From positions 1-32,927 of the forward strand of contig JAZUBE010000110.1 in assembly GCA_045638325.1 (NCBI GenBank): a stretch of 32,927 nt of DNA, given 5' to 3'. Origin of the DNA: Eubacteriales bacterium. Its GTDB lineage: Bacteria > Bacillota > Clostridia > Oscillospirales > CAG-272. Made by a program: the position numbers and the translations under genes. Of the stretch, positions 149-16,211 are shown piece after piece; within the stretch, counting starts at the first letter, position 1, and every line of letters starts with the position of its first letter. The notes under the pieces are model-generated. The model had not been told where the DNA came from, searched no databases, and saw only the letters and a program-made list of their open reading frames with translations.

Positions 149-445
149 ATGATCAGAGTATCGGCAAACGAGCTTATCGCAAAGGCGAATGAGCTTAAGA
201 ATCTTAACGCACAGCTGAGAGCCTCCATCGGAGAGCTTGAATCAACGGAGGAGACACTGAGAACAATGTGGGAGGGCGAGGCAAACAACGCATTCCACAC
301 CGCATTCACAAATGACAAGATCCAGATGACAAACTTCTACAATGCGATCGAAGTATACATCTACCGCCTCCTTGAGATTGCATCAAAGTATCAGCAGGCA
401 GAGGCAACAAGCGCAGAGATCGCAGCAACAAGAACATACCACTGA
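149..445 (+). CDS. WXG100 family (EsxA-like) small secreted protein, type VII secretion substrate
   Basis: 98 aa, predicted helical hairpin with a central W-x-G motif (TMWEGEANNAF). RBS AAGAGGA lies upstream of the ATG. Confidence 0.85.
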   Translation: MIRVSANELIAKANELKNLNAQLRASIGELESTEETLRTMWEGEANNAFHTAFTNDKIQMTNFYNAIEVYIYRLLEIASKYQQAEATSAEIAATRTYH

Positions 446-478
446 TAATACGAGAGAAGAGAAAAGGAGAGATATACA

Positions 479-793
479 ATGGAAGGTATTCTTAGAGTAA
501 CACCCGCTGAGCTTATCAGCGTATCAAATGAATTCAGCGGAAGAGGAAGCGTGATCAGCTCCCTTACAACCGAGATGACAAATCAGGTGACCGGACTTTC
601 ATCAGTCTGGGAAGGCGATGCGGCAACCGCATTCGTAACCAAGTTCAGAGGGCTGGACGATGATATCCAGCTGATCAACAGAATGATCCAGGAGCACGTA
701 CAGGATCTCCAGGATATGGCTAATGCATACAGCCAGGCAGAAAGTGCAAATCTCAGCGATATCGAAGGACTTACCTCCGACGTTATCGTGTGA
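479..793 (+). CDS. WXG100 family (EsxB-like) small secreted protein
   Basis: 104 aa with a central W-x-G motif (SVWEGDAATAF). RBS AAAGGAGAG. Tandem with the first WXG100 gene, as in Esx pairs. Confidence 0.85.
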   Translation: MEGILRVTPAELISVSNEFSGRGSVISSLTTEMTNQVTGLSSVWEGDAATAFVTKFRGLDDDIQLINRMIQEHVQDLQDMANAYSQAESANLSDIEGLTSDVIV

Positions 794-808
794 TTTGAAT
801 AGATTATA

Positions 809-2578
809 TTATTTCGGAAGACAGAGAATAGTACAGAGAAGACGCAAAACTGTAAGATGTGGAAAAACATAAAACAAAAAGGTCGGTGGTACTCCACCGA
901 CCTTTTGTGTGTTATTTAAGAAGGATGCACGTCGAACCTTGGTTTGCGGGATAGTGTCTCTTTGGATATAGTTATTCCCGTTCGCAAACCCAGGTATATC
1001 TGCTTCGCAGATCTGCGAGGCTCGGCCCGATACGTCGGCAAAAAAAGAACAGGATGCACTTTGTGCATCCTGTTCTTTTTGGTGGACCACATTGGATGAT
1101 AAACAAAGTTTTTCTCCCGAAAGGCCATTTTCTATTTCATCAAAGAGTTTATCAGAGATCTCCACTTCCTCATCACCTGTATTGAAGGTGATAGTAAACT
1201 TATCATCATAAAGGAAGATCTTATTCACAAACATTTTTATAAGTGCTCTGCGGTATGTAATATCGTTAACATCACCTTTGGCAAGACTTTCAAGAAATTC
1301 TATCACCTGTTCCTCGGTAACCACAAAATGTCTTGCCTTCTCGATCTCAAGCTGTCTTTCAAGCTCAGCTATCTCTGCACCGATCTTCGCCAAATCCTCA
1401 AAAATCATATTCCGAATGGTATCATCCGAACACATACGGAGTGACTTCATCTGATTGTCCTTTTCTCTGTTTGCGTTCGCAATCAACCCTTCAAGTCTCT
1501 GAAGCTCTGCTTTGCTCTCCATGTTTGAGATCACCCACATCATCTCTTTGGCAATTCTCTTGATGTTCTTCGGAGTAAGCAGATTTCGGCACTCATTTAC
1601 AACAACATCTTCTATGTAATCTTTCTTTGCAAGCTTCTTTTTGCAGGGCTTACCTCCACCCGAATTCTTACATTTGTAGTAGTTGAAAATAACGCCTTTC
1701 TTGCTGATCTGATTTGAGCTGTGTCCTATCATTTTCTCCTTGCAGTAACCGCAGTAGAGCTTGCCCGACAAAAGATATTCTGCTTTCGCTCTTGACCTTG
1801 CGGGAGCTGCCTTGTTCCCCTCCATAATGGCGGCCACACGTGCAAACAATTCATCGTCGATTATCTGTGGCATACCGCCGGGATGCTCTATCCCTTTGTA
1901 TATGTAGATGCCGAGGTATTTGCGGTTTTTCAGCATCACATGAAGGGATGACCTGTTAAAACTTGCCCCGGAGGAAGTTTTGATACCTCTTTCGTTCAGA
2001 TTTTCGCAGATTTGTCTGACAGTCCATCCGTCAGCATATTTCTCGTAAACTTCTCGTACAATCGGCGCCGTCTTCTCGTCGATAACATATCTGTGATCTT
2101 CTATCTTATATCCAAGGGGAGTTGCACCACCGTTTGACAGACACTTCTCGGCATTGATAGCCATTCCTCTGTTAACTTTACGTGAAAGCTCTTTGGAATA
2201 GTATTCTGCCATGCCTACTAATACTGATTCAAGCACGATGCCCTCGGGTTCATCGGAAATGGCTTCTTTTGCACTTATGAGTTTTACATCATTCTTTTTC
2301 AAGGCATACGTGTATTTCGCACTGTCATACCTGTCTCGTGAGAATCTGTCTAACTGATAAACAATTACAGCTTGAAATACTTTCTTCTTACTATCGTTAA
2401 TCATACGCAGGAAGTTAGGTCTATCGTCTGTTCTTGCGCTGAATGCTTCGTCTACGTATTCTCCGACAATGGTATAACCATGCTGTTCCGCATATTCAGT
2501 ACAGACGGCACGCTGTCCCTCTATTGATTCTCTCCGCTGTTTGCTGTCAGAATACCTCAAATAAAGAACTACGTTCAT
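809..2578 (-). CDS. large serine recombinase (3' end uncertain)
   Basis: N-terminal resolvase catalytic domain (MNVVLYLRYSDSKQ..., Ser at position 10). This is followed by a recombinase domain, a Cys-rich zinc-ribbon segment (CGYCKEKM...YYKCKNSGGGKPC) and a coiled coil. RBS AAGGAGG. The last roughly 100 codons (809 to about 1130) run through two terminator hairpins and do not look protein-like. Confidence 0.85.
   Translation of the reverse strand: MNVVLYLRYSDSKQRRESIEGQRAVCTEYAEQHGYTIVGEYVDEAFSARTDDRPNFLRMINDSKKKVFQAVIVYQLDRFSRDRYDSAKYTYALKKNDVKLISAKEAISDEPEGIVLESVLVGMAEYYSKELSRKVNRGMAINAEKCLSNGGATPLGYKIEDHRYVIDEKTAPIVREVYEKYADGWTVRQICENLNERGIKTSSGASFNRSSLHVMLKNRKYLGIYIYKGIEHPGGMPQIIDDELFARVAAIMEGNKAAPARSRAKAEYLLSGKLYCGYCKEKMIGHSSNQISKKGVIFNYYKCKNSGGGKPCKKKLAKKDYIEDVVVNECRNLLTPKNIKRIAKEMMWVISNMESKAELQRLEGLIANANREKDNQMKSLRMCSDDTIRNMIFEDLAKIGAEIAELERQLEIEKARHFVVTEEQVIEFLESLAKGDVNDITYRRALIKMFVNKIFLYDDKFTITFNTGDEEVEISDKLFDEIENGLSGEKLCLSSNVVHQKEQDAQSASCSFFADVSGRASQICEADIPGFANGNNYIQRDTIPQTKVRRASFLNNTQKVGGVPPTFLFYVFPHLTVLRLLCTILCLPK
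876..907. terminator. bidirectional rho-independent terminator hairpin
   Basis: Perfect 9-bp stem ggtcggtgg (881-889) / ccaccgacc (894-902) with loop tact. An A5 run lies 5' and a T4 run 3'. Sits about 85 nt after the second WXG100 stop. Confidence 0.7.
1040..1080. terminator. bidirectional rho-independent terminator hairpin lying inside the annotated recombinase ORF tail
   Basis: 13-bp perfect stem gaacaggatgcac (1047-1059) / gtgcatcctgttc (1063-1075). Flanked by an A7 run (1040-1046) and a T5 run (1076-1080). Confidence 0.7.
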
Positions 2579-3195
2579 TGTTTAGCCTCCTTTTCCCTCT
2601 CCTCATTCACAAACTTGTAGAAAGTATTAGTCTTAAGTCCCAACACCTTCATAGCCGAGACTGCTGTGATCTCTTTGTTGCACCACTTCTGATATATCTC
2701 GTCCCATCCCTCGGGACGCTGTGCTCTCGGTCTGCCGATCTTCACGCCTTGTGCTTTTGCATTTGCAATGCCCTGTGCCTGTCTCGCCTTGATATTCTCC
2801 CTTTCCTTCGCAGCAACGTATGAGAGAATCTGTAATACAAGGTCAGAAACAAATCTGCTGTCTATGCTTTCACCGCTTGTTCTTGTATCAAGCAGTGGCA
2901 TATCGAGAACCTTTATATCTGCGCCAAGCTCACGGGTGATATACCGCCATTGTTCCTGTATCTCCGTATAATTACGCCCGAGCCTGTCAATGGCTGAAAC
3001 AACCAGCAAATCGCCCTTACGAATAGAGTTAAGAAGTCTTTGGTATTCGGGTCTGTCAAATGATTTTCCGCTGACCTTGTCAACGTATATATCCCTCTCC
3101 GAAATCCCAAACTCTCGCAAGGCATTCAGCTGTCTTGCTTCATTCTGTTCTTTGGTTGATACTCTTGCGTACCCGTGTGTTCTTGTATCTGTCAT
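2575..3195 (-). CDS. small serine recombinase (resolvase/invertase type with C-terminal HTH)
   Basis: MTDTRTHGYARVSTKEQN... is the canonical resolvase N-terminus with Ser at about position 12. The C-terminal part is HTH-like. I prefer the ATG at 3195 over the ORF-track start at 3246. The stop overlaps the downstream recombinase start (ATGA at 2575-2578). Confidence 0.88.
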   Translation of the reverse strand: MTDTRTHGYARVSTKEQNEARQLNALREFGISERDIYVDKVSGKSFDRPEYQRLLNSIRKGDLLVVSAIDRLGRNYTEIQEQWRYITRELGADIKVLDMPLLDTRTSGESIDSRFVSDLVLQILSYVAAKERENIKARQAQGIANAKAQGVKIGRPRAQRPEGWDEIYQKWCNKEITAVSAMKVLGLKTNTFYKFVNEEREKEAKQ

Positions 3196-3289
3196 ACTTT
3201 GCACCGCCTTTTTATTTATTATAAGATAGCTCTTTACAAAAGTCAACCCGATTTATAAATATATTTGTTATCGTCAACAAGCTTTTATA

Positions 3290-3476: not shown

Positions 3477-6400
3477 TTACTTATCGCACAGTTTTCTGGC
3501 TCGTTCAATATACTCCTTGAAACGTTCCTCACCGCGAACGGAATTAAACCATTCCCATCCGGAACTTTGGTTAAGAACTTCATATGGGAGAGCAGGCGAA
3601 TTTGACATACGCCAGCCGTATTCAATAGGCTCAAAGCGTCCGTTTGGAAGCTGTATCTTTTCCGAATTGAACTGATATTTCACACCGCCAAAGACCTCGG
3701 CATTTCCCACATCAAGAAGTTCACCCTCCTTGAAAGAATTCGCCATTTCATAATATTCGATCATGATCTCAAGGTGGTTGTAACCATTCTCAGGCTCACC
3801 ATTGCCGAAATATGCTGCAGCTCTTATAAGAGCACACCAGGCATAAGCAGAATACCATGCAGGAGGCACATTACCGTCATCACCGAAAAGTTCCATAAGT
3901 CTCATGTTGAATCCCTGGACTTCTATCGATCTTTTGGCAGTCCAGATATTATGACTAGGCCTTGCAACAGCATGAAGCAACAAATGAAAATTGTTGACAC
4001 CATACATCATTTGTCCCTCTTGCCAATTTCCTTCTGAGCAGAGCTTGTCTTCAATCATCTCGCTCTGAACGGCACTATACCGGGTTATAGGAGGCGGTAA
4101 TCTGCGGATACCTGTGGCATCCTTGAAAATTACGATTTCTCCGTTACTGTCTTGCACATAAGTATACTCTGTACCACCTATAAAACCATCCGTAAGATCA
4201 AGAGCATCATATCGACGCACAAGACCGTCAGCCATAGGCATATAGCCATTACCTGTTCCTTCATAGGACGAAAGCTCGTATACTGCTGTTCTTGCACCGT
4301 CACAGTATTCATTTTCTGTTCTTATGATACCAATACCATCTGCGAAATAATAGACTTTTTTACCACCGCGATATGAAAGACCGTCTTCCATTCCATAAAT
4401 GTCCATTGATAATTTCAGACAGTTCTCAAAGGTTCCCGCCTTAGTAGTAATGCATCCGCCGTCTTCACAGGATATATTTGTTCTGATTGAACTGTCAAAA
4501 CGATGGTATTCAACGGTAGGTGTCATTCCGATTTGCCATTCATCCGACCAGATACAGTTTGTGGCATCGCTGAGAATACCGTAGATATCATTATAAAGTA
4601 ACGGGGTATCTGCGACTCCCATGATCATTTTAAGTTCAAACGACCATCTGGGGCCATGAGTGATTCTCAGGGTTCCGTCTTTTAAGTATACATTATTTCT
4701 ATCAAAGAAATTCCAATGTCCCGTATAATCGTTTCCGGGAGTTTCACAGGCTATAATTCGGCGTGCAACCGACACAGCAGCTTTGGAATGTGCCTTTTCC
4801 ATGGGTGTGACTGCCAGTGCCTCGGCCCTTTCAAGCGGCAGTGAAACATCACCTATTTTTCCTTCATCATTTTCGTAGATCCAATATTCATTACGGATCT
4901 GCTGGATCATATCAAGCCAACTGTTTTCATCATAGCGGAATCGTTCAGCAAATCCCCGTGTCGCAAGCATTACAGATTCACTGTCAGAGTGAGTAACCGT
5001 GACCTTAAACTCAGAGATCATAACGTCGTGATCGTATGTATCTGCATACTCCCACGTATTGCCGACAGCCAGGGGAAGGAGTCCTTTACCACCTGAAATA
5101 TTGTATTTTGCAAGCAGACGTACATCAGTAAGATCATCTATGGTATGCTCATACTTTACTATGCCGACACCGGATTTATACCATGCTTTATTGATACAGT
5201 ATCCGCTGTATTCCCCATACTGCTCGGTAACCCAAAGCTGACAATCTTCAAAAACTCCGCACGGTGTCTCTACGGTTTCTTCGCCAGAAACAAAAGTCAA
5301 TTTTGTACCGTCTGTCCCCGTACGTGATTCACCCACAGCCATTTTCTCATCGAAAAACCAACCGTCACAACGGGATATATTATGGAACATACTCAGAATA
5401 TTACGATCAAAGGAATACATATAACCTTCCCCGTATTCTTCCTGTTTCCAATGTCGTAAACTGCCGTCAATCAGGCGCAATTCCTCGGCTGTGGCATTGT
5501 TCACAAACCGATTTTTATATTTATCTCGGTAACCTGCTTCCATTTTGTTTTCCACTTCTCTCGCATATACCGTAAGCGCATAATACCTGTCCGCAGGAGT
5601 CAAGAGAGACTGCACCTTGTCGAATGCTGCGTATCCGTTCTCGGTCTGACCGTTTCTGAAGTATTCATACCCTAACCAAAACCACTCTCTCGCAAGTGTA
5701 TGTACAAGTCCTGCTTTTTCAAGAATGGGGATCTGCTTCTCCCGAATAAAATCGAGCTTGGCACCGCCGTATACCTGACTGTCTTCACGGGTGACGATAA
5801 ACTCCATTACTTCATCGTTCTTCCCCTGCAAAGCCGCTTCCCTGATTCTGGCAAACAAAGCATCGTTCTTATCACCGGGGAGCCACCACCAACCTCGCAT
5901 CAGCACGTCAGCGAGTGCGTGTTGTTTTTCAGTGCATTCGGGAAGCTCTTCCACCTCGCGAAGCACCTGTGCATATACTTTTTCAAATCCACTCTTGTCA
6001 TTTTTCACCTGCCACAGTTTAAGTTCTTCAACCTTTTTCATGACACGCTGTACAAGAGTATCACTATACTTTTCATCCATAGCGCAAAGTTCCTTTCTGA
6101 TTCGTTTTCTGCCATCGTGAAGCTGCCTTTTGACCGTTCCTTCGGAAATACGCATACGATCTGCGATCTCTGCAATGGAAAGATTTTCAAAATAGTGCAG
6201 ATGAATGATCTGTCGCACTTTCTCAGGCAACCTCTCAATGCCTTTGTTTACTTCGTCTCTTTCCTCGGACAGTGCATAAAGCTCTGCCGGATTCTCTGCC
6301 CCTTCATCAGTAATATTCAGATTATCCACTACGTCAAGGGGAAGAAAGCTTCGGTATCTGCTTATCATATTCAGAGCACAGTTTTTGGCAATACGGCACA

Positions 6401-6626
6401 CCCAGGAACCATACTTTTTAGGGTCTTGCAAAGTATTAAGTTTCATCCAAGCCGTAACAAAAGCATCCTGTGCAGCATCTTCAGCCATAAAATGATTCTT
6501 AGTAATCATAACAGCTGACGATACTACCGCTTTTTGATATCGTGTCACCAAAACTTCATAAGCCGTTTGTTCACCGGCAAGTGTGAGCATTACCAGTGTT
6601 TCGTCCTGCTCATGCTTGTAGTACAT
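3477..6626 (-). CDS. ECF-type sigma-70 family factor fused to a roughly 865-aa soluble C-terminal region
   Basis: The N-terminal ~185 aa carry a region 2 motif (DAAQDAFVTAWMKL...WVCRIAKNCALNMISR). They also carry a region 4 motif (LPEKVRQIIHLHYFENLSIAEIADRMRISEGTVKRQLHDGRKRIRKEL). No hydrophobic TM segment is seen afterwards. The likely start is the ATG at 6626 (RBS AAAGGAG); the track start at 6632 is a GTG. Confidence 0.85.
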   Translation of the reverse strand: MYYKHEQDETLVMLTLAGEQTAYEVLVTRYQKAVVSSAVMITKNHFMAEDAAQDAFVTAWMKLNTLQDPKKYGSWVCRIAKNCALNMISRYRSFLPLDVVDNLNITDEGAENPAELYALSEERDEVNKGIERLPEKVRQIIHLHYFENLSIAEIADRMRISEGTVKRQLHDGRKRIRKELCAMDEKYSDTLVQRVMKKVEELKLWQVKNDKSGFEKVYAQVLREVEELPECTEKQHALADVLMRGWWWLPGDKNDALFARIREAALQGKNDEVMEFIVTREDSQVYGGAKLDFIREKQIPILEKAGLVHTLAREWFWLGYEYFRNGQTENGYAAFDKVQSLLTPADRYYALTVYAREVENKMEAGYRDKYKNRFVNNATAEELRLIDGSLRHWKQEEYGEGYMYSFDRNILSMFHNISRCDGWFFDEKMAVGESRTGTDGTKLTFVSGEETVETPCGVFEDCQLWVTEQYGEYSGYCINKAWYKSGVGIVKYEHTIDDLTDVRLLAKYNISGGKGLLPLAVGNTWEYADTYDHDVMISEFKVTVTHSDSESVMLATRGFAERFRYDENSWLDMIQQIRNEYWIYENDEGKIGDVSLPLERAEALAVTPMEKAHSKAAVSVARRIIACETPGNDYTGHWNFFDRNNVYLKDGTLRITHGPRWSFELKMIMGVADTPLLYNDIYGILSDATNCIWSDEWQIGMTPTVEYHRFDSSIRTNISCEDGGCITTKAGTFENCLKLSMDIYGMEDGLSYRGGKKVYYFADGIGIIRTENEYCDGARTAVYELSSYEGTGNGYMPMADGLVRRYDALDLTDGFIGGTEYTYVQDSNGEIVIFKDATGIRRLPPPITRYSAVQSEMIEDKLCSEGNWQEGQMMYGVNNFHLLLHAVARPSHNIWTAKRSIEVQGFNMRLMELFGDDGNVPPAWYSAYAWCALIRAAAYFGNGEPENGYNHLEIMIEYYEMANSFKEGELLDVGNAEVFGGVKYQFNSEKIQLPNGRFEPIEYGWRMSNSPALPYEVLNQSSGWEWFNSVRGEERFKEYIERARKLCDK

Positions 6627-6721
6627 ATGCACTCTCCTTTCTTGTGATTTAGGAATTCCTTTTTTGAGCGCTTGTCTTTAAGACACAAATCAGAATGAAA
6701 AGGTTGTGTGATTTGAAATAA

Positions 6722-6750
6722 ATTATATCATAAATATGTGGATTAGTCTA
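6722..6750 (-). promoter_or_regulatory. candidate sigma-A promoter for the sigma-fusion gene
   Basis: Minus strand reads TAGACT - 17 nt - TATAAT with a TGn extension. The leader to the start codon would be about 90 nt. Confidence 0.4.
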
Positions 6751-6938
6751 TAAAATCACCGCTAGGATTAATTGTGTAATCATTCCCAGCGAAGATACCA
6801 TCTTTATGTGCCTTTAAGAAATTAAAATATGATATATCCATTCATACAGTTAAGTGAATGTATATACTATGTAAGTAAAAAATGGCTTTTCGCTTGGGTT
6901 AAATTGAAAAAATATATTTGACTATTAGAATATAAATC

Positions 6939-6975
6939 AAAAATCTCTCCTGTAATTTATACAAGAGAGATTTTT
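6939..6975 (-). terminator. terminator after the AT-rich cassette
   Basis: 11-bp arms aaaaatctctc (6939-6949) / gagagattttt (6965-6975), 35 nt downstream of the stop of the 214-aa gene. Confidence 0.55.
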
Positions 6976-7009
6976 CAATTAAAGGTAGTAGATTTATAAG
7001 ACGATTGAA

Positions 7010-7654
7010 TTACTTTTCGTCAGATTCGTCGTTATCAAAAATATTGTTGAATATATCAAGTATCTTATCCATATCATTTTTTAGATCTTTACACAAATCT
7101 ATATTAGCAAATAACGCAATGTTGGTTAAGCTTTGAGCATTGTTGGAATATAAATTAAAAAGATATTCAGCTTTTAGATTATCAAATCTAAACAGTTCAT
7201 AAACTTCATAACAGAAACGCTTAACTGTGAATCTTTTAATGATTACCCAGTCTGTAACTGTATTCAACAACTTCATCGAGCGATCAACTTCTTCGTCACT
7301 CAAAGCGGTTTCTGCTTTTACAACCTCATCTAATTCAGACTGTAATATTGTATTCTTGAACAAGTATTCTATCTTTTCTTTAAAAGTTTCGTAATCAAGG
7401 CTTCTGAAATATTCCATATCTTCATATGGTATTATTTGCTTAGTAATAATATTGATTACTATACTGCAGAATCTTTCATTTTTACATTGCTGACGTATAG
7501 TGTCAAATAATGCTTCTTTGTCCAGTCCATCTTTTACAGAATCTATCGTCTTATCAATTTCTTCGAAAAAAATCTTATCATTTGCAGAAATAAATTCATG
7601 TACGGCTTCATCCGTCATTTCTGATGCAAGGTTATTGCAAAATAAATCAAACAT
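7010..7654 (-). CDS. hypothetical acidic, predicted all-helical protein (214 aa), third gene of the AT-rich cassette
   Basis: Long ORF in very AT-rich DNA with RBS GGAGG 6 nt upstream of the ATG. Acidic C-terminal tail (DNDESDEK). I recognise no family motif. Confidence 0.7.
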   Translation of the reverse strand: MFDLFCNNLASEMTDEAVHEFISANDKIFFEEIDKTIDSVKDGLDKEALFDTIRQQCKNERFCSIVINIITKQIIPYEDMEYFRSLDYETFKEKIEYLFKNTILQSELDEVVKAETALSDEEVDRSMKLLNTVTDWVIIKRFTVKRFCYEVYELFRFDNLKAEYLFNLYSNNAQSLTNIALFANIDLCKDLKNDMDKILDIFNNIFDNDESDEK

Positions 7655-7671
7655 AATTTTCCTCCAATATG

Positions 7672-7697
7672 TTTACATGTATACTAGTACATGTAAA
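7672..7697. promoter_or_regulatory. perfect inverted repeat (candidate operator) just upstream of the 214-aa gene
   Basis: tttacatgta (7672-7681) / tacatgtaaa (7688-7697), perfect 10-bp arms with a 6-nt spacer. It begins 18 nt upstream of the ATG at 7654. Confidence 0.4.
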
Positions 7698-7777
7698 AAA
7701 GATTGTTATCTAAATCAATTTTATGTTTATAGTGTTTTTAATATAAAGTACATTATAAACATTGATTATAATACCAA

Positions 7778-8656
7778 TTAACTATGATAAATATAGCCGG
7801 TTAGTTCTTTACTGTTTTTTTCTGCATTTAATTTATAAGTATGCAGTATAAAAATATTATTTTCTTGCTCTAACCTATTTTCATAAGATTTTGCAGGATC
7901 AGGCATACTTCTAATCTTTGATATTTTTAATTTTTCACTGGATTTAAAAACCATATCAATTTTATGTCTTAATAATCCCTTTTCTTTTATATCTATTTGT
8001 GAAGACAACGCATGTAATACTTTTAATTTATTAGGTTTAACTTTACCAATTTCTTCAGACATCTCATCCAACAAAACATATACTTGTTTTACCGGTATTT
8101 GATGCTCAACCTTATTTGCTGTTGAGCGTTTGCTCTGTGAAAGCAGTTGCTGACCTTTCCGCGTTAAAGATAAATAACTTGTAGTACCAATTTTCTTCAC
8201 ATGAATCAATTCATATTTGTCAATTCTTCTTACAAAATTTGACAGATTACTACTTGATTTAAATTTTAATTCTTTTTTTAATTGAACGCCAGAAATAGTA
8301 TTGTGTCGCTGAATAGTTTCTAATACCGGCAACAATAGTGCATAATTCTTTGAAATTTGTTCTAATGTACATGATATATTATTAGCATCAATCAAATCAA
8401 GTACCAATTCTGTCATTGCTGCGATTCTGCCATAATTGAAACATATGTTATTGTTATCATTCTCTATATTAAGAGCATTGCTAATAGTTTCAAAATTGTC
8501 AGATAAAGCCTTAAAACTTTTCTCTAACGAGTCTATTCTTTCGTGTGTCAAAGATTCAAAAACCAATTTGTATATTGAATCACTTACCGCTTCTATATTA
8601 TCACTATTTTTGTTTTGAAAATCCTTAACATCAATAAGAGTGGTTTCCGTAGCCAT
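7778..8656 (-). CDS. hypothetical protein with a central winged-helix (MarR/wHTH-like) segment (292 aa), second gene of the cassette
   Basis: RBS AAGGAGG. The segment LLPVLETIQRHNTISGVQLKKELKFKSSSNLSNFVRRIDKYELIHVKKIGTTSYLSLTRKGQQLL has the helix-turn-helix plus wing pattern. Confidence 0.7.
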   Translation of the reverse strand: MATETTLIDVKDFQNKNSDNIEAVSDSIYKLVFESLTHERIDSLEKSFKALSDNFETISNALNIENDNNNICFNYGRIAAMTELVLDLIDANNISCTLEQISKNYALLLPVLETIQRHNTISGVQLKKELKFKSSSNLSNFVRRIDKYELIHVKKIGTTSYLSLTRKGQQLLSQSKRSTANKVEHQIPVKQVYVLLDEMSEEIGKVKPNKLKVLHALSSQIDIKEKGLLRHKIDMVFKSSEKLKISKIRSMPDPAKSYENRLEQENNIFILHTYKLNAEKNSKELTGYIYHS

Positions 8657-8703
8657 GTAAAAGCCTCCTTTGAAGTGAACTATGCGTATACTTCACCTAT
8701 ATT

Positions 8704-8732
8704 ATAATAACATAAAAATATTACTAATTCAA
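8704..8732 (-). promoter_or_regulatory. candidate sigma-A promoter for the wHTH gene
   Basis: Minus strand reads TTGAAT - 17 nt - TATTAT with a TGn extension. The -35 hexamer overlaps the stop codon of the upstream 454-aa gene. Confidence 0.45.
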
Positions 8733-10093
8733 GTATATGTTTTACTTAGGACAAAAGTTTTTATACACATATTGCAATTTTTATCTCCTGTGCAACCAGA
8801 AAATCTAAAAACTTCCTCCGCAAGTAACTGGTGGTCTTTAACTTTTGGCGCTAAACAATAGACGATGTGTTGATCCACATCTTGTAAAGGTGCACACGAA
8901 TTACATATTATTGTTGAAACTCCTTTGCGTGTTGCGAGAGAGCGAGCTGTTTCTGACATTAGATATGAGCTGTTAGTATACGCGGAGACAAACACAAAAT
9001 TTGCATGCATAACAGAGCATACCGTATTAATACTTTCGTTGTTAAAATCAGCACAAATTAAATATACGATTCTTCCGATTTTGGGTATATCTATAAATTT
9101 GATCTGATGATCTCCTTCTATAGCTTCTCTATAATTACAATGTTCATCTTTATCATATGGTTCATATGGAATTTGCTTCTTTTCGAGAATTAAAACAGTT
9201 CCCTTTCCAGTTAACAAACAAGCTACATTACTATTATTTTCCCAAACACTGCCTAAAAATATTAGCTTTAGGTGTTTAAAATTAGCTGATATTAAAAATT
9301 CTCTTATATATTTTTGTGTAGTTGGTGTCATTGCTAATTCTGGAAACAAGGCAATGTCCACTTTCTGATTTTCACATTCTATTAAAAGTTTTTTGATGGT
9401 TTCATTATGTGGAGAAGTAAGTGCTGAATCATATTCAATTGAAAACTCCTTGGTTTCATGGTTTTTGTATACAACGAACCATTCTTTGTCTAACATAGGC
9501 ATACAAGCAATTTTCAACTCATTAAGATCATTAAAGCAATGACTGTATTCTGTTATTTGTGGATTATAATCATGCAATTGAGTTTCTTTTATAACCTCAA
9601 AATTATAAAAATTCGCATTCAAAGTATCTGTGTCGTATTCTACCGTTTGTCTCCCTCGTATAATTCTCCCTTTTTTTAAAGTTTTTTGAAAATATGATTC
9701 TGATGGTTTTAAATACAGACGATATCTATCATCAGTGTTAAGAGGCCCTTTATTAAGAATAAGTTTTCTGCTTGTTGACTGTTCGCCAATAACATCATCG
9801 AGCTTTTGCAAGGTGACATAACAAAAAACTTCAGGTGGTAACGCTGTTTTATTAAAATCTAATATCCACAAATCAATCCAATCTTTAAAATCGTTTAATG
9901 AAACAAGACTAAATTCCTCTGCCCATTTTTGTATATTATCAAATTCTTCAGATAAAGCACTATTTGTAGCTTTCTTAAAATTATTACGTATTTCTCTTAT
10001 ACTTTTAGTGTCAAGAAAAATATAAACATTGACAATAAATGAAAAAATGTCTTCGACTTTCATTATTTTTTCAACAACATCGGTTTTTGTCAT
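8729..10093 (-). CDS. fusion protein: unknown ~200-aa N-terminal domain plus a nitrilase-superfamily (carbon-nitrogen hydrolase-like) domain plus a C-terminal Cys cluster
   Basis: Glu-Lys-Cys triad pattern in the canonical order and context: DIALFPELAM (E252), LILEKKQIPY (K305/K306), RIVYLICADFN (C347). A beta-strand-like KIACMPM opens the domain. C-terminal cysteines are C397/C400 and C434/C440/C443. RBS GAGGTG. Confidence 0.75.
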   Translation of the reverse strand: MTKTDVVEKIMKVEDIFSFIVNVYIFLDTKSIREIRNNFKKATNSALSEEFDNIQKWAEEFSLVSLNDFKDWIDLWILDFNKTALPPEVFCYVTLQKLDDVIGEQSTSRKLILNKGPLNTDDRYRLYLKPSESYFQKTLKKGRIIRGRQTVEYDTDTLNANFYNFEVIKETQLHDYNPQITEYSHCFNDLNELKIACMPMLDKEWFVVYKNHETKEFSIEYDSALTSPHNETIKKLLIECENQKVDIALFPELAMTPTTQKYIREFLISANFKHLKLIFLGSVWENNSNVACLLTGKGTVLILEKKQIPYEPYDKDEHCNYREAIEGDHQIKFIDIPKIGRIVYLICADFNNESINTVCSVMHANFVFVSAYTNSSYLMSETARSLATRKGVSTIICNSCAPLQDVDQHIVYCLAPKVKDHQLLAEEVFRFSGCTGDKNCNMCIKTFVLSKTYT

Positions 10094-10113
10094 AATATCA
10101 CCTCTTTTGTAAT

Positions 10114-10142
10114 ATTATAGCACACATATATAAGAATTGCAA
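10114..10142 (-). promoter_or_regulatory. strong candidate sigma-A promoter for the CN-hydrolase-like gene
   Basis: Minus strand reads TTGCAA - 17 nt - TATAAT, preceded by TGc (extended -10). Lies about 20 nt upstream of the RBS. Confidence 0.55.
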
Positions 10143-10311
10143 TTAATCATAAAACAAAAGTCCTTTATCCCTCACCCCCAAAAAACCTTATATATAATCA
10201 AAGCCAAAAGCAAGGTCACACGGCACAAGACAGCAGGCAAAAACCGTATGCTCACTGTCGTTATACATCTAACCGAGATGTGTGTCAGATTATAAGAACT
10301 GAGGTGTTTCT

Positions 10312-10530
10312 ATGTTTAATATTCTTGATATGGATGAGGTTGACAACAGAGCCATAATAAAGAATAGTTTTAGTGCTATTGATATTCTCAATTTGCTTCT
10401 GTCTATCATAGAACTGAACGAATACAGAATTACTCTGAATGTTACTGCTGACGGCACATACGAATTCTATATTAACGGTCAGATGTATGCCATTTTGCCT
10501 GCAGATTCACTTGTTATGAAATCGGAATGA
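10312..10530 (+). CDS. small hypothetical protein (72 aa)
   Basis: RBS GAGGTG 7 nt upstream of the ATG. Followed by a clean terminator at 10546-10581. No recognisable motif. Confidence 0.55.
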   Translation: MFNILDMDEVDNRAIIKNSFSAIDILNLLLSIIELNEYRITLNVTADGTYEFYINGQMYAILPADSLVMKSE

Positions 10531-10626: not shown

Positions 10627-12990
10627 TCAAAATTCCACATTTTCATCTTCATAGGAATTTGTGTCTGAGCCGTCACTTGCCGTCACGGGAGGACTTGGCA
10701 GAACATAGTCGGGGAGCATATCAGCAGTATTTACATAGGGCATATCAAATGTATCGGTATGTGAAGCAATTTTAAGTCCTGTCCAATATCTGATTTTGCC
10801 GTTTCTTCCATGAACAAAGCCTGCTTTTTCAAGGGCGGCCTTAAAAATATCAGATTTTCGGGTGAACTCTCCGTTGCGTTTACAGTAATCACGATAATTT
10901 TCGTATAGCCGTCCTGCTCTCTCTGTGAAGCCTTTGCCTGTCTCACAGCACTCTGTAAGATAATTGTTCACCCAATCATTGGCTTCTCTGTAATCTTTAA
11001 TTGCCTGTCTTACGATCTCGGGAGCTTCGATTTCATATCCTGCTTTTATAAATTTATATGCACCTTCGATTATCCATGACAGGACTGCTCCTCCGGCTTC
11101 ATTGAAAAGATATTCAGCATAATTCTTGATGTCGTTATTCTTTTCAATCACTGCGTTAAAGGGGATTACTACAAGTCTGCGCCATGTGCCGTCGTCTGAT
11201 GATCCTACATCGGGTAAATGATTTGTATAGAGCACTACTGTGTGAGAAGGGATGAAGCTGAACGGATCCCTGTATTTCTTTTCTGCGTATATAGGGTCTG
11301 TTGAACAGAGCTTCTTTACAACGGCGGTATCAAGTCTCATACCCTCTTGAAGTTCGGCAGCAATAGCAAGCCTTTTTCCTCGGAGTTCGGCGTATTCCGG
11401 ACTTTTATTCTTTCGGGAGTTTACTGTAAGAGTTTCGGCAGACAGATTCCCCGAGTAATCGCCAAGCACCCTTGCAAGGAGATTGAAGAACGTACTCTTT
11501 CCGTTCCGTCCACTGCCGTATGCTATCACGAGATTCTCTCTGTAAACAGCACCTACTGCAAACATACCTGCCACAAGCTGTAAGTAGTTTTCAAGCTCTT
11601 TATTGTCGCAAGTAATGGTTTTGAGGAAGTTTGCAAACAGCTCTGCTCCCTCAGCCGATACACCTACATTCGTAATCTTTGTACAGTAATCAAGAGACGT
11701 GTGAGGGTGTATTTCCTTTGTGCGCAGATCAACTGTGCCATCGAGAGTATTAAGCATAAACGGGTCTGCATCGAGCATTGAGCTGTCGATCTCGGCCATA
11801 GGTTTGGCTTCGGTGAGAACGGCTCTGATCTTCATTGTATCTCTCTTACCAAGTGCAAATTTCATATATTTCATTGCACGGTTAGCTTCTTGTTTATTTT
11901 TCTTGGCCTCCATGTCATCCATGTTCAACACTGAATCCATCTCTGCCTTTTGAGCCCTTTGCAGTTTCACTGAAGCTTCTTTTATCTGTGAATCGGTGAA
12001 CTGCTGTACCAATCTGTGAACCTTCAATTCGCTTTCAGTCCACACCTTGCCTGTATAATACAGATAGTTTGTGGCAGGCGAGTATTTGACAACATCACCG
12101 TACTCACGCACAAACACATAGGCCTGTCCTACATCGGAATAATCGGAAGGCTCTAAGTCTTCGGTGGAATTGTACTGGTCGGGAGAGGTATAGTTTGCTG
12201 AGGTCTTTATGACTTTACGATAGTATGACAGTGCTCCGTCCCAAATTGTAGATACTTCATTATCGGGTAAAGGCTCTTCACATCTGTAGACGTTCTGCTT
12301 GAACAACTCATACGCCGTGTCTGATGTGTCTCCAAATCGGGTGAGAAGCTTCAGCGCAATTTGATGAAGTGTGTTATTCCGTTCTCCCACAGGAATTCTG
12401 TCATATTCCGTTGCTTTTGTGAAAGGGGATGGCTTATCATCGGTTGTGCTTATATCTACGGTTCCCATGAATTCCGACAGTAATGTTTCGCCGTCATAGT
12501 ATTCAACACGTGGAATCTCAACGCCATAGAAGAAGTGTGCTATATCCTTTGCCTTAGCATCAAAATAAGGGAAATAGGCACATACCCTCTCCTTTAACTT
12601 TGCATATTCTTCCCCGTCGGTGAATTCTTTGTCGGGGAAATACAGATGAAATTTCGGACGGGGTGCCTTGCCGTCTTTTTCCCTCATATGATTTCGGGAA
12701 TATGACACATAAAACGGCACATCGGGGAAGGCTTCACGGATATTTTTGGGCGTTATCCATTCATTCTCACTGTCGCTATGGCTATTATCAACATCAAGCA
12801 TGATGCAGTTTGCCTTGATGAAGTTGTCGTTCTTGCGATGGTATTCTGCATACTCAGCGCTGACATGGTCAAAGACTACGAGGCTTGCAAGATCTTCTGC
12901 AGTATGTATTTCTGCTTCATAGGGATACCTTGTGTTGTTTGATTTCTCTCGGCAGTTGTTGTAGTAAAGTGTAATTTTGTAATCAGTCAT
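10627..12990 (-). CDS. bifunctional primase-polymerase (AEP) / P4-D5 family primase-helicase
   Basis: The N-terminal AEP motifs are CIMLDVDNSHSD and PKFHLYFP. A PriCT-like segment follows (GERNNTLHQIALKLL). The C-terminal part is SF3/D5-type NTPase with Walker A (YGSGRNGKSTFFNLL). I prefer the ATG at 12990 with RBS GGAGGTG; the track start at 12999 is a GTG. Confidence 0.9.
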   Translation of the reverse strand: MTDYKITLYYNNCREKSNNTRYPYEAEIHTAEDLASLVVFDHVSAEYAEYHRKNDNFIKANCIMLDVDNSHSDSENEWITPKNIREAFPDVPFYVSYSRNHMREKDGKAPRPKFHLYFPDKEFTDGEEYAKLKERVCAYFPYFDAKAKDIAHFFYGVEIPRVEYYDGETLLSEFMGTVDISTTDDKPSPFTKATEYDRIPVGERNNTLHQIALKLLTRFGDTSDTAYELFKQNVYRCEEPLPDNEVSTIWDGALSYYRKVIKTSANYTSPDQYNSTEDLEPSDYSDVGQAYVFVREYGDVVKYSPATNYLYYTGKVWTESELKVHRLVQQFTDSQIKEASVKLQRAQKAEMDSVLNMDDMEAKKNKQEANRAMKYMKFALGKRDTMKIRAVLTEAKPMAEIDSSMLDADPFMLNTLDGTVDLRTKEIHPHTSLDYCTKITNVGVSAEGAELFANFLKTITCDNKELENYLQLVAGMFAVGAVYRENLVIAYGSGRNGKSTFFNLLARVLGDYSGNLSAETLTVNSRKNKSPEYAELRGKRLAIAAELQEGMRLDTAVVKKLCSTDPIYAEKKYRDPFSFIPSHTVVLYTNHLPDVGSSDDGTWRRLVVIPFNAVIEKNNDIKNYAEYLFNEAGGAVLSWIIEGAYKFIKAGYEIEAPEIVRQAIKDYREANDWVNNYLTECCETGKGFTERAGRLYENYRDYCKRNGEFTRKSDIFKAALEKAGFVHGRNGKIRYWTGLKIASHTDTFDMPYVNTADMLPDYVLPSPPVTASDGSDTNSYEDENVEF

Positions 12991-13005
12991 TTTACGCACC
13001 TCCGC

Positions 13006-13137
13006 TTACGCAATCTCAGCAGAATCATTGATCTCGTTTGCCTGTTCTTCTTTTGCCTTGATATCACGTATCATTGCATCCAAACATTCAAACACGAAGT
13101 CTCTTGCCTGTTTCTTGCTAATTGTGATTTCTTTCAT
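13006..13137 (-). CDS. small ORF (43 aa) immediately upstream of the primase gene, below the ORF-track cutoff
   Basis: Translated by hand as MKEITISKKQARDFVFECLDAMIRDIKAKEEQANEINDSAEIA. RBS AAGAGG about 10 nt upstream. Its stop lies 13 nt before the primase ATG. Confidence 0.4.
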   Translation of the reverse strand: MKEITISKKQARDFVFECLDAMIRDIKAKEEQANEINDSAEIA

Positions 13138-13216
13138 TTTTCAGTACCTCTTTAACAAAATTTACTCGGTTTTTGTCCCGGTACTGCTGATAACTACCGC
13201 CTAATAAAAGATGCAC

Positions 13217-13245
13217 TTGACGGAACCAAAGAGGTATGATACAAT
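13217..13245 (+). promoter_or_regulatory. candidate sigma-A promoter for the IS1595-like gene
   Basis: TTGACG - 17 nt - TACAAT. It lies inside the ORF-track N-terminal extension, which supports the downstream ATG at 13268. Confidence 0.55.
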
Positions 13246-13267
13246 TAAGAAAAAGAGGTGTACAAAT

Positions 13268-14107
13268 ATGGACTTGCAAGAGATAATAAAAAAATTCGGC
13301 ACTGAAGAACAATGCCGAGAGTATATATACAGTGTCAGATGGAAAGACAGATATCGCTGTCCCCGATGTGGTAGTACAGAAGCATGGAAGACAGGTGAGA
13401 TAAAATACAAATGTCAGAAATGCGGACACAAGGCATCTGTAACCGCAGGGACTGTATTCGGTGATTCGCATATTCCTTTGCCGATTTGGTTTAAGGCTAT
13501 ATGGTATGTGTCAGCCGATCCCACAGGCATTACTGCGGATAAACTGCAAAAGGAACTCGGTCTCGGCAGTAACCGCACCGCCTTATCAATACTTCATAAA
13601 ATCAAAAGAGCTATGATACGCACTACCCTTGATAAGCTCAGCGGTACTGTTGAAATCGTCACCACCGATCTCAGACTTATTGACAAAAAGGTGTTTGTAG
13701 CCTTTGCCGTTGAAGTGAGAGGTAGACGGATAGGCAAAATCAGAGTAAAGAGAATTCACCGTGATTCTCCGTTAGAGCTTGTGGAGTTTATAGATAGATG
13801 TGTAGAGCCTAACAGCACTATCATACATAAGGAACTGATGCTTCGGGATGTTATGTTATATGAAGATTACACCGAGGCACATAAGCCATACGCATACAGC
13901 TTCTCCTGCACACGTAAAGTAAAAACCAAATTGGAGAACTGGCTGTTTGACAATTATACAGAGGGTAAGCTCAGCCGCTGTCTCAATGAATTCTGTGCTC
14001 GTGTAAACAGTATGAAATGCGAGTATGATTTTTATGATCTGCTGAACAATGCTATACGGTTGAAACCGAGTACAGATAAGACGAGGAAGTTTGGAATTGA
14101 TGTGTAG
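13268..14107 (+). CDS. IS1595-family transposase-like protein with apparently degenerate catalytic residues
   Basis: The N-terminal IS1595 zinc-ribbon/HTH pattern is YRCPRCGSTEAWKTGEIKYKCQKCGHKASVTAGTVFGDSHIPLPIWFKAIWYV. The position of the vEvDEt motif reads VEIVTT, and the TDxxxxY position reads IHKELML. RBS AAGAGGTG before the ATG at 13268. Confidence 0.7.
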   Translation: MDLQEIIKKFGTEEQCREYIYSVRWKDRYRCPRCGSTEAWKTGEIKYKCQKCGHKASVTAGTVFGDSHIPLPIWFKAIWYVSADPTGITADKLQKELGLGSNRTALSILHKIKRAMIRTTLDKLSGTVEIVTTDLRLIDKKVFVAFAVEVRGRRIGKIRVKRIHRDSPLELVEFIDRCVEPNSTIIHKELMLRDVMLYEDYTEAHKPYAYSFSCTRKVKTKLENWLFDNYTEGKLSRCLNEFCARVNSMKCEYDFYDLLNNAIRLKPSTDKTRKFGIDV

Positions 14108-14333: not shown

Positions 14334-15191
14334 ATGCTAGCAAAATTAATGGATAGTCCTATTGCATGGACTGCTTTGGCAATAATTACTGTTGCGAGCT
14401 TGGTGTATGCAATAATATGTCAACAAATAAACAAAGAGAAAAAAGAATTTACATATTGTCGAAAAACAACTTCACTGCTTCACAAGAAAAAAAGAAAATT
14501 CGAAAAGTTGTTGGTTTCATATGATGGGCAAGAAATCGAAAATTTGTGCGTAAGTAGATTTACAATATGGAATAGCGGAAATAAAACTTTATATAGCAAT
14601 GATATGGTAACTTCAAAAGAGTTAATTGTAACAACCGTAGAAGAAGATAGGATTTTAGACGTTGAACTTATAGTATGTTCTGAAGAAACAAATAAATTCA
14701 TTACTCAAGTTATTAATGAGCATACAGTAAAAATACTCTTTGAATATGCTGATAAAAAAGATGGGGTTGTAATACAAATCATACACACTGGAACAGCTGA
14801 ATCATTGAAAATTGACTGTAAAATCAAAGGTGGTAAACCAATTAAGAATTTTATTAATGAAGCTGCACCAAGGTTAATTAGAAAAACAATTAAACCAGAA
14901 ACATTTGAAAAAATCATGGTAGTACCGATTATCATATCAATTATTCTTTTATTCGGAATTGCTATTGCAAGCACGATAGCGATTTTTAATACAGACTTAC
15001 AAAATATATTATTCAATCCGGTAGCAAATGAAAAGCAACCTTTAGATCCTCAAAATGAAGCAATAATAATGTCTATTATTTTTTGGGTATGTATTATACT
15101 GATTTGTGTTTCGTATAAGCCTATTGTAAAACTAAAATTTGGTATAGGTATACCAAAATCATTGAAAAAGCATTCTGATTTTACCGATTGA
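14334..15191 (+). CDS. hypothetical three-TM membrane protein with a central beta-rich soluble domain (285 aa)
   Basis: Very AT-rich ORF with RBS AAAGGA. Hydrophobic segments at about residues 9-29, 195-217 and 243-262. No recognisable family motif. Confidence 0.7.
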   Translation: MLAKLMDSPIAWTALAIITVASLVYAIICQQINKEKKEFTYCRKTTSLLHKKKRKFEKLLVSYDGQEIENLCVSRFTIWNSGNKTLYSNDMVTSKELIVTTVEEDRILDVELIVCSEETNKFITQVINEHTVKILFEYADKKDGVVIQIIHTGTAESLKIDCKIKGGKPIKNFINEAAPRLIRKTIKPETFEKIMVVPIIISIILLFGIAIASTIAIFNTDLQNILFNPVANEKQPLDPQNEAIIMSIIFWVCIILICVSYKPIVKLKFGIGIPKSLKKHSDFTD

Positions 15192-15410: not shown

Positions 15411-15487
15411 TGGTGGGCCATCAAGGACTCGAACCTTGGACCGACCGGTTATGAGCCGGTAGCTCTAACCAACTGAGCTAATGGCCC
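15411..15487 (-). tRNA. tRNA with CAT anticodon (elongator Met or lysidine-modified Ile2), CCA encoded
   Basis: The reverse complement folds as a cloverleaf. Acceptor GGGCCAT/ATGGCCC, D arm GCTC-AGTTGGTTA-GAGC, anticodon stem ACCGG/CCGGT with loop CTCATAA, T arm CAAGG-TTCGAGT-CCTTG, then ACCA. G1:C72 rules out an initiator. Confidence 0.95.
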
Positions 15488-15508
15488 GACTTTTATTCGG
15501 CTCTGTTA

Positions 15509-15537
15509 ATTTTATCACAAACAGAGACGAATGTCAA
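15509..15537 (-). promoter_or_regulatory. sigma-A promoter for the tRNA
   Basis: Minus strand reads TTGACA - 17 nt - TAAAAT. It ends about 21 nt upstream of the mature tRNA 5' end. Confidence 0.6.
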
Positions 15538-15605
15538 CACTTTTTCGCTTGTGTTTTGGGAAAATTTATCGCAAAATTCCGCAATGTTCGTCAGACAACG
15601 TAGTA

Positions 15606-16211
15606 TTATCCCCGATTTTTTATGATCTTCATTCGTGAGAACTCCTCACGCTCCTTTTCCTCAAGGACTGCTGTGATCTCTCGGATAGTCTTTTCCGCTT
15701 CGGGGATTATAATATTTTTCAGCGCTTTTGCACGCTTTTGAGTCTTTTTGATCGCATCTGCCAGGCGATACACACTGTTTTCCACCTCAGCCATGACTGC
15801 CGTAAGTTTTTTTACCTCGGCAAATCTCATGTATGCCTCGTCAAGTACGGAATTTGACTCCGCAAGTCCGTAAGGGGGTATTGTTGCCATAGATTTGTCA
15901 CATTCCACCATGGGTATTTCAACGCCCATGACACTGCGGTATCTTATGGAAAGACTGTCGTCAAAGGGAACATCCTCTGCAAGATCTCTGCGGATGCCCC
16001 CGGTGATATTTGCACGCTGAAGGGCGGCGTATGCTGCACCGAAGGTGGAATCTATACGTCCGTGGAGATCCGTTGCGGTATCGATGAGCTGCATCATCTC
16101 ACGGATGAGGATATTCCGTTTTTTATCCAGCAGTTCATATCCCGTACGGGCAAGCTCCAGCCGCTTTTTCTCGGCCAGGAGATTTCCTTTTGTCGGTGCG
16201 ATCTTTGCCAT
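15606..16211 (-). CDS. ntpD: V-type ATP synthase subunit D
   Basis: The N-terminus MAKIAPTKGNLLAEKKRLELARTGYELLDKKRNILIREM is typical of V/A-type subunit D. Last gene of the operon. Confidence 0.9.
   Translation of the reverse strand: MAKIAPTKGNLLAEKKRLELARTGYELLDKKRNILIREMMQLIDTATDLHGRIDSTFGAAYAALQRANITGGIRRDLAEDVPFDDSLSIRYRSVMGVEIPMVECDKSMATIPPYGLAESNSVLDEAYMRFAEVKKLTAVMAEVENSVYRLADAIKKTQKRAKALKNIIIPEAEKTIREITAVLEEKEREEFSRMKIIKNRG

Follow-up and report, generated by a model that had tools for sequence, protein, structure and literature searches.

The window analysed here is the whole 32,927-nucleotide (nt) stretch of contig JAZUBE010000110.1 (assembly GCA_045638325.1), from a Eubacteriales bacterium (CAG-272, Oscillospirales), and our subject is a cassette of three co-oriented genes in it, all on the minus strand and in the order A-B-C, which encode proteins of 454, 292 and 214 amino acids (aa). 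A first reading made from the sequence alone (the sequence-only reading) had placed three open reading frames (ORFs) of these lengths here, each with a good ribosome-binding site (RBS), in a block richer in A+T than the surrounding island and chromosome, headed by a TTGCAA-17-TATAAT promoter, closed by a terminator at 6939-6975 and lying in a mobile island between a sigma-factor fusion gene and a primase-helicase gene; we find that each of these observations holds. The G+C content is 0.25-0.33 across 6501-10500; elsewhere in the island it is 0.40-0.48, and the chromosome has 0.45-0.54. The three-gene unit by itself is at ~29%, within an island of 42-50%. The Shine-Dalgarno sequences of all three genes are strong (GAGGTG, GGAGG and GGAGG). 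The features of the cassette are as follows.

8729-10093, minus strand: gene A, 454 aa; ORF with an N-terminal region, a predicted nitrilase-superfamily domain and a C-terminal Cys cluster
7778-8656, minus strand: gene B, 292 aa; ORF for a predicted MarR/ArsR-like winged-helix protein
7655-7777, minus strand: B-C spacer, 123 nt, with a perfect 10-nt inverted repeat at 7672-7697 and a 20-nt palindrome at 7723-7762
7010-7654, minus strand: gene C, 214 aa; ORF for an acidic protein, the third component in this clade
10114-10142, minus strand: putative sigma-70-type promoter, TTGCAA-17 nt-TATAAT with an extended -10 TG, 10/12 consensus matches
10092-10118: imperfect palindrome ATAATATTAC-N7-GTGATATTAT, overlapping the -10 box, the RBS and the start codon of gene A
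6939-6975, minus strand: intrinsic terminator of the cassette, with a 16-pair stem, a 5-nt loop and a T-rich tail
10581-10546: second terminator, which closes the upstream primase gene

All three genes are real, with homologues elsewhere in which the order is kept. The putative promoter precedes the start codon of gene A by 20 nt. The AT-rich DNA here contains only slightly more promoter-like sites than expected (33 versus 23.1 +/- 4.9), so that the call rests on the position and quality of the site rather than on statistics. The cassette terminator begins 35 nt past the stop codon of gene C, and because the cassette has its own promoter and terminator, with the primase gene closed by the second terminator, it appears to form a separate transcription unit.

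Protein A has no significant sequence match in Pfam, NCBIfam, PHROGs or the PDB. The sequence-only reading had noticed a Glu-Lys-Cys signature in it, had assigned its C-terminal part to the nitrilase superfamily and had expected a match to PF00795 over residues ~190-390. The signature is real and extends to a tetrad, E252-K306-E323-C347, and the superfamily assignment stands; the expected family match fails, with nothing found in the window protein even at E <= 1 and a distant member of the A family scoring 17.7 bits against a gathering cutoff of 23.2. Because PF00795 does not detect protein A, we make the nitrilase assignment at the superfamily level, from structure and motifs. In an alignment of 18 close homologues, E252, K306, E323 and C347 are invariant, and an AlphaFold2 model built from that alignment (predicted local distance difference test score, pLDDT, 88.3; predicted template-modelling score 0.89) returns nitrilase-superfamily CN-hydrolases as all of its top 50 Foldseek matches in the PDB, with E of 5e-10 to 3e-8, a probability of 1.00 and a template-modelling (TM) score, normalised to the target, of up to 0.66; the modelled domain has the four-layer alpha-beta-beta-alpha sandwich fold. 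Its structural neighbours are beta-ureidopropionase, a Staphylococcus CN-hydrolase, AmiF, Nit2, aliphatic amidases and the glutaminase domain of NAD synthetase, and every weak sequence-profile match in the PDB is to a D-carbamoylase, the FPE, K, E and C motifs falling in the aligned positions.

The family to which A belongs is large. An exhaustive profile search gives 1403 representative clusters at E <= 1e-3, 152 of them at E <= 1e-30, and most of these representative relatives are full-length at 450-550 aa. Conservation was scored in 163 representatives spanning E of 1e-173 to 1e-31; among non-gap residues the tetrad is retained in 159/159 (E252, in an FPE motif), 159/160 (K306), 149/151 (E323) and 158/158 (C347, in an ICxD motif), and this near-invariance argues that A is under selection to stay active. 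We therefore predict, from these motifs and the model, that A is an enzymatically intact nitrilase-superfamily amidohydrolase. Its predicted domains and key codons lie as follows.

9785-10093, minus strand: residues 1-103, a six-helix bundle, assigned by DSSP from the full-length and N-terminal models (pLDDT ~90)
9524-9784, minus strand: residues 104-190, a small linker subdomain of mixed alpha/beta structure in which GPLN and RGRQT(V)EYD motifs (R148) are conserved
8732-9523, minus strand: residues 191-454, the alpha-beta-beta-alpha nitrilase-superfamily domain
9338-9340, 9176-9178, 9125-9127 and 9053-9055: codons of the predicted catalytic residues E252, K306, E323 and C347
8894-8896, 8792-8794, 8774-8776 and 8765-8767: codons of the Cys cluster, C400, C434, C440 and C443

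The six-helix bundle is still modelled confidently when the N-terminal region is taken alone, and D99 in it is near-invariant among the 163 representatives; a Foldseek search with residues 1-192 gives a best E of 3.7 in the PDB and 1.2 among the viral proteins of BFVD, with TM < 0.3, and so detects no relative. The linker subdomain is modelled with confidence in full-length A and not in isolation, and so probably packs on the nitrilase domain. The four residues of the Cys cluster are largely conserved and, judging from their pattern, may bind zinc.

We then examined gene neighbourhoods in three sequence collections, with B and C located by hidden Markov models. The order A-B-C is found in 20/20 non-redundant loci of the clade with enough downstream contig (the window, L001-L003, L006, L009, L011-L023 and L024), and the named genomes that carry the trio belong to Clostridia of the gut and rumen (Acutalibacteraceae, Ruminococcus and Lachnospiraceae). 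Conserved synteny had been put forward as the check on the proposal that the three genes belong together, and it is kept in every readable locus of the clade, with no membership of a metabolic operon. Between any two of A, B and C, the pairwise identities are correlated (r = 0.88-0.92 between matrices; Mantel p <= 5e-4); the three proteins co-evolve and are co-inherited as a unit. They are three protein families so far annotated merely as "hypothetical protein", and one member of the A family bears the JGI label "predicted amidohydrolase". A fourth conserved gene was sought and none was found: the 72-aa ORF, the sigma fusion, the primase and a 285-aa ORF of the window are all without counterparts in the other loci.

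Three distant branches extend this picture. In each, a winged-helix protein resembling B (E of 1e-9 to 6e-20) again comes after A, and the third gene encodes an unrelated protein of 367-405 aa (L027 10310-12228; L029 9742-11891; L030 3887-6176), which in L030 carries DUF1828 (E 2e-5); in L027 an additional gene of 86 aa separates A from B. Fusibacter paucivorans WP_213237624.1, annotated as "hypothetical protein", is one member of a distant branch. Since these branches keep A and B and swap the third gene, A and B appear to form the core, with an exchangeable third component.

Protein B was said to contain a winged helix, and a profile of B indeed matches MgrA (2bv6) at E 1.8e-4, other MarR proteins at 2e-4 to 5e-4 and ArsR/SmtB proteins at 0.03-0.05. 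The alignment to PDB profiles covers residues 91-196 of B and residues 18-133 of MgrA, from helix 1/2 via the wing to helix 5, and the predicted DNA-reading element is placed as follows.

8132-8344, minus strand: predicted winged helix-turn-helix of B, residues 105-175, with a recognition helix SSSNLSNFxxR, invariant N140 and R144, and wing residue G168

Extensions of ~90 aa and ~100 aa are present at the N and C termini of B. A search of Pfam with the window protein yields nothing below E 0.06, and the homologue P0024 comes near to the gathering scores of WH_Rok (24.6 vs 27.6 bits) and MarR (18.2 vs 24.6 bits) while remaining below both. We conclude from these profiles that B is a MarR/ArsR-like winged-helix protein, with predicted dimerisation helices on either side of the winged helix, and a predicted DNA binder. 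Protein C, in which nothing had been recognised at the outset, likewise has no match here in Pfam, NCBIfam, PADLOC, PHROGs or the PDB; it is acidic, with an isoelectric point of 4.4 in the window and 4.4-5.0 across all orthologues and an acidic C-terminal tail, DNDESDEK, and from its composition it appears to be helical in character. A shared adaptor domain (EAD or Death-like) that would link A to B or C, a candidate raised by a weak EAD9 match in B and by the six helices at the N terminus of A, was rejected: when the sub-domains of A, B and C were all compared profile to profile, no common domain emerged (probabilities <= 11%).

The arrangement of B and C points to coordinated synthesis. In 16 other loci the B-C gap spans -74 to +33 nt, with most values between -8 and +19 nt, and the 123 nt of the window are the exception; as the two genes usually overlap or stand no more than ~30 nt apart, they are probably translationally coupled as a rule. 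A 36-nt stretch of the window's B-C spacer (7736-7771) has a 78%-identical copy within the beginning of gene A (10003-10038). The palindrome at 10092-10118, for which an equivalent with 18-nt arms occupies the same position in the closest relative, L009, is a weak candidate for an operator of a dimeric MarR-like protein B. A 72-aa ORF (10312-10530, plus strand) with a GAGGTG RBS diverges from gene A inside the AT-rich block; it has no match in PHROGs and no homologue in other loci.

Comparison with known immune systems places the trio near one class of them. The sequence-only reading had stated that it knew of no anti-phage system built on a nitrilase-superfamily enzyme, and this proves wrong: the class 3 UG/Abi reverse transcriptases DRT1/UG1, DRT11/UG5, UG6 and UG29 carry or adjoin nitrilase domains, and the catalytic Cys of the nitrilase is needed for defence by DRT11 (PMC13275509, PMC13436386, PMC9122126). 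Nitrilase domains are required effectors of the abortive-infection systems DRT1 and DRT11 (PMC13275509, PMC13436386), and in DRT1, where the nitrilase is described as the effector, its substrate is stated to be an open question (PMC13275509). CN-hydrolase is also listed among the domains fused to bacterial NACHT proteins (bioRxiv 10.1101/2022.07.19.500537). The class 3 systems resemble the cassette in having as effector a nitrilase-superfamily domain with an intact catalytic centre, which in their case acts by abortive infection, and in UG5-small and UG6 a gene of its own encodes the nitrilase; they differ from it in that the cassette is without a reverse transcriptase, pairs its predicted enzyme with a MarR-like winged-helix protein and an acidic protein, and gives A an N-terminal region of its own, for which no fold match was found, and a C-terminal Cys cluster. 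All characterised cases of a nitrilase effector are coupled to a reverse transcriptase and there is none here, neither as a domain in A nor among the island genes of the window, which were scanned one by one; no reverse transcriptase family is among the 25 commonest of the 153 Pfam families matched in 118 neighbouring proteins of the loci, and a scan with Rfam for an associated non-coding RNA, as in some DRTs, finds a tRNA alone.

Whether the cassette matches an already named system had also been raised, and PADLOC-DB v2.0.0 gives no significant match to any. The best matches there are, for A, HTH_IX (E 5.6e-4) and RTasNitrilase (E 6.8e-3) and, for B, CARF3 (E 0.012), with none for C; the RTasNitrilase match (E 0.0068, 13.5 bits) covers residues 241-271 of A alone, 31 residues around the FPE motif. 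We found no description of a system of nitrilase, MarR-like protein and acidic protein free of a reverse transcriptase in PADLOC-DB v2 or in the literature. What is new is the set of partners and the architecture; the idea of a nitrilase effector is not new. Membership of the ABC-3C group was considered and rejected: the trio holds no ATPase, and a single weak CTD5 match (E 0.016) occurs in one B homologue.

Other known families share parts of the cassette. With the nitrilase amidases (beta-ureidopropionase, AmiF, the omega-amidase Nit2, D-carbamoylase and the glutaminase domain of NAD synthetase), A has in common the fold, the Glu-Lys-Glu-Cys order and a similar K-E and E-C spacing; it differs in its identity to them of only 10-16%, in its added N-terminal region of ~190 residues and Cys-rich C terminus, and in its place in a mobile three-gene cassette, where theirs is the context of a metabolic pathway. 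The MarR/ArsR regulators MgrA, OhrR and SmtB resemble B in that the profile of B aligns with the MarR core, whereas B is ~2x their length, scores below Pfam thresholds and is encoded by the second gene of an operon, strictly co-inherited with A and probably translationally coupled to C.

The setting of the cassette is that of foreign cargo. The trio is AT-richer than its flanks in 16/16 loci, and none of the genes that neighbour it in the window recurs at other loci, the neighbours differing from locus to locus; the cassette is compositionally foreign cargo that moves between unrelated genomic contexts. Mobile features and known defence genes around it are as follows.

Window: mobile features, serine recombinases, a primase-helicase and IS1595; known defence genes, none identified
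L001: mobile features, a conjugative element with a type IV secretion system coupling protein; known defence genes, none identified
L002: mobile features, serine recombinases and transposases; defence genes, a DinG-type helicase and a 1949-aa STAND-like NTPase
L003: mobile features, none identified; defence genes, an MkoC-like (Mokosh-like) helicase, E 5e-55
L006: mobile features, a serine recombinase, a transposase and a ParE toxin; known defence genes, none identified
L009: mobile features, none identified; defence genes, an AbiLi-like ATPase, E 1e-23
L011: mobile features, none identified; defence genes, Wadjet JetA/JetC directly downstream
L016: mobile features, none identified; defence genes, Lamassu LmuB (E 1e-99), 2 kb downstream

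In L029, SocA_Panacea, a toxin-antitoxin (TA) part, lies near the trio. A DpdF match in L011 was not counted as defence, since this 606-aa RecQ-like helicase may be a housekeeping protein. This pattern, drawn from few loci, suggests the cargo of defence islands or mobile elements. We find no homologue in 50,697 phage genomes or 72,556 plasmids (tblastn) or in IMG/VR viral contigs, and a blastn search of plasmids with the cassette is also empty; with the phage, plasmid and IMG/VR searches all empty, a phage- or plasmid-borne origin was rejected.

Some neighbours are particular to single loci or lineages. The 1949-aa protein of L002 (14541-20390) has AAA_22/NPHP3_N NTPase signatures, is encoded 1.6 kb past the trio, with transposase genes on both sides, and is probably a separate defence gene. 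A radical SAM/SPASM gene (4644-5768) precedes the A homologue of L003 by 39 nt, and the trio is followed there by the genes of an agr-like quorum-sensing set (AgrB, a LytTR regulator and a histidine kinase), an arrangement confined to the lineage L003-L005.

The island of the window and its flanks hold the following genes.

149-793, plus strand: tandem WXG100 gene pair (ESX/type VII secretion substrates), left flank, just beyond the recombinase end of the island
809-2578 and 2575-3246: serine recombinases, from the individual scan of island genes
3477-6632, minus strand: sigma-70 fusion protein, 1051 aa, neighbour of the cassette
10627-12999: D5_N/PriCT primase-helicase, upstream neighbour of the cassette
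13211-14107, plus strand: IS1595-type transposase gene
14334-15191, plus strand: second AT-rich orphan ORF, 285 aa, G+C ~0.30, at the tRNA-proximal end of the island
15411-15487: tRNA-Met, at the island edge
from 15606: V-type ATPase operon, right flank

Two serine recombinases, a D5-type primase-helicase, an IS1595 transposase and the tRNA-Met at its edge support the mobility of the island. No convincing direct repeats that could serve as attachment sites flank it. The 1051-aa fusion joins sigma-70 regions 2 and 4, of extracytoplasmic-function (ECF)-like type, to a C-terminal region of ~850 aa with a DUF3108-like segment; it adjoins the cassette and is not conserved with it. An antisense ORF of 117 aa (13118-13471, minus strand), without a family match, overlaps the transposase gene. 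The 285-aa ORF matches nothing in Pfam or PHROGs, has no counterpart among related loci and may be another cargo gene of the island. Locus L030 has a V-type ATPase subunit D gene ~350 nt upstream of the start of its A-like gene (L030 1049-3716); the window's island abuts the same ATPase gene, together with the tRNA-Met (15411-16211), and L030 has no tRNA there. This neighbourhood may be a recurrent insertion site, used in the window and in L030.

We favour, with confidence about evenly balanced for and against, the reading that the trio forms a conflict module, complete in its three genes and horizontally mobile, which most likely defends against phages or mobile elements by abortive infection. 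The intact tetrad, the strict operon order, co-evolution, mobility, the defence and mobile context and the precedent of DRT1 and DRT11 speak for it. By analogy with the nitrilase domains of those two systems, A would be the effector, held silent by its own N-terminal region and by the B-C pair, which together would sense the trigger; once released, A would hydrolyse a C-N bond of an essential amide-bearing molecule (e.g., NAD+, a nucleotide, or Gln/Asn in proteins), and growth would stop. B might bind the palindrome over the -10 box and so repress the operon or, alternatively, bind foreign DNA, and C might be a modulator or specificity subunit, a role that would fit with the replacement of the third gene in the distant clades.

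Several points weigh against this reading. We infer the roles of B and C and the substrate of A, and likewise the defence function, the latter from genomic context, and small catabolic or detoxification operons likewise show a MarR-type regulator beside an amidase. Defence genes neighbour the trio in ~5-6 of ~16 loci, a raw count without a genomic background, and L012-L015, L018, L027 and L030 lie among ordinary genes (polysaccharide synthesis, two-component systems and transporters). With no significant match in PADLOC, Pfam, NCBIfam or PHROGs, nothing ties the trio to a validated system. Repeats such as the promoter palindrome are common in AT-rich DNA, and its copy in L009 may reflect shared ancestry.

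That the trio is a previously undescribed anti-phage immune system, independent of a reverse transcriptase and widespread in gut and rumen Clostridia, is a tentative proposal that we hold with some doubt. Here a DNA-sensing, MarR-like partner together with an exchangeable third subunit would license the stand-alone nitrilase effector, whose hydrolysis of an essential amide- or nitrile-bearing molecule would kill the infected cell or arrest it. More speculatively, the nitrilase could act on the nitrile or amide groups of modified phage bases (7-cyano- and 7-amido-7-deazaguanine), which would explain the pairing of a nitrilase with a DNA-binding protein.

Some of the same evidence can be read differently. 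The toxin gene comes first in higBA, mqsRA and hicAB, and a SecB-like chaperone is the third part of toxin-antitoxin-chaperone (TAC) systems. The trio might accordingly be read as a tripartite TA or addiction module that stabilises its carrier elements and has no dedicated anti-phage role, with A as toxin, B as DNA-binding antitoxin and autorepressor, and C as an acidic helper that controls B in the manner of a SecB-like chaperone. By analogy, the order of the genes (enzyme, helix-turn-helix protein, small acidic protein) with B and C tightly coupled, a candidate autoregulatory palindrome over the promoter, the strict co-inheritance of the three genes, and frequent carriage on integrative or conjugative elements near other TA parts (ParE in L006 and SocA_Panacea in L029) would all suit TAC systems and reverse-order type II TA modules such as higBA and mqsRA. 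The cassette proteins are, however, several-fold larger than typical type II components and related to no TA family in sequence or fold, the extra region of ~190 aa in A suggests regulated sensing, and several loci lie off recognisable mobile elements, so that we judge an addiction module unlikely, though not negligibly so; it overlaps the defence reading rather than excluding it, because the boundary between TA and abortive infection is blurred.

The nearest structural neighbours of A, small-molecule amidases (beta-ureidopropionase, the formamidase AmiF, Nit2 and the aliphatic amidases), raise instead an accessory metabolic or detoxification operon, in which an amidase or carbamoylase, controlled by B as a MarR-type repressor that responds to ligands, would act on a small-molecule amide or nitrile of the gut or rumen, with C as an accessory protein. 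MarR regulators classically control small-molecule amidase-type enzymes, B is MarR-like, one relative of A is labelled an amidohydrolase, and some loci have ordinary chromosomal neighbours. We consider this operon rather improbable: the trio, whose neighbours vary in every locus, lacks a conserved transporter or second enzyme of a pathway, and regulators of catabolic enzymes are usually swapped freely, whereas A, B and C co-evolve as tightly as the subunits of a complex, down to ~21-28% identity. The size of B, 2x that of MarR, the large non-catalytic N-terminal region of A, the foreign composition in every one of the 16 loci and the repeated siting on mobile elements or beside defence systems argue in the same direction. 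A last reading, in our estimate very improbable, makes the trio a weapon or counter-defence of the mobile element itself, whose nitrilase would degrade an amide-bearing molecule of the host or of a competitor and so exclude competitors or neutralise a host immune signal. Such a weapon would suit cargo of integrative and conjugative elements with a foreign composition everywhere and a third gene that varies between clades, as in an arms race; yet many loci have no recognisable element around the trio, and the absence of homologues from the phage genomes, plasmids and IMG/VR contigs searched above would be unusual for an anti-defence gene.

We regard the trio as a good candidate for a new immune or toxin module. 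The nitrilase effectors of bacterial immunity are known so far from systems with a reverse transcriptase, DRT1 and DRT11. If the defence reading is true, the nitrilase would be a portable immune effector, represented by a family of ~1400 clusters and operating with two small partners and no reverse transcriptase, and the cassette would offer a simpler system for finding what nitrilase effectors destroy; it would also add a defence or toxin module specific to the Firmicutes of the gut and rumen, where few systems have been validated.

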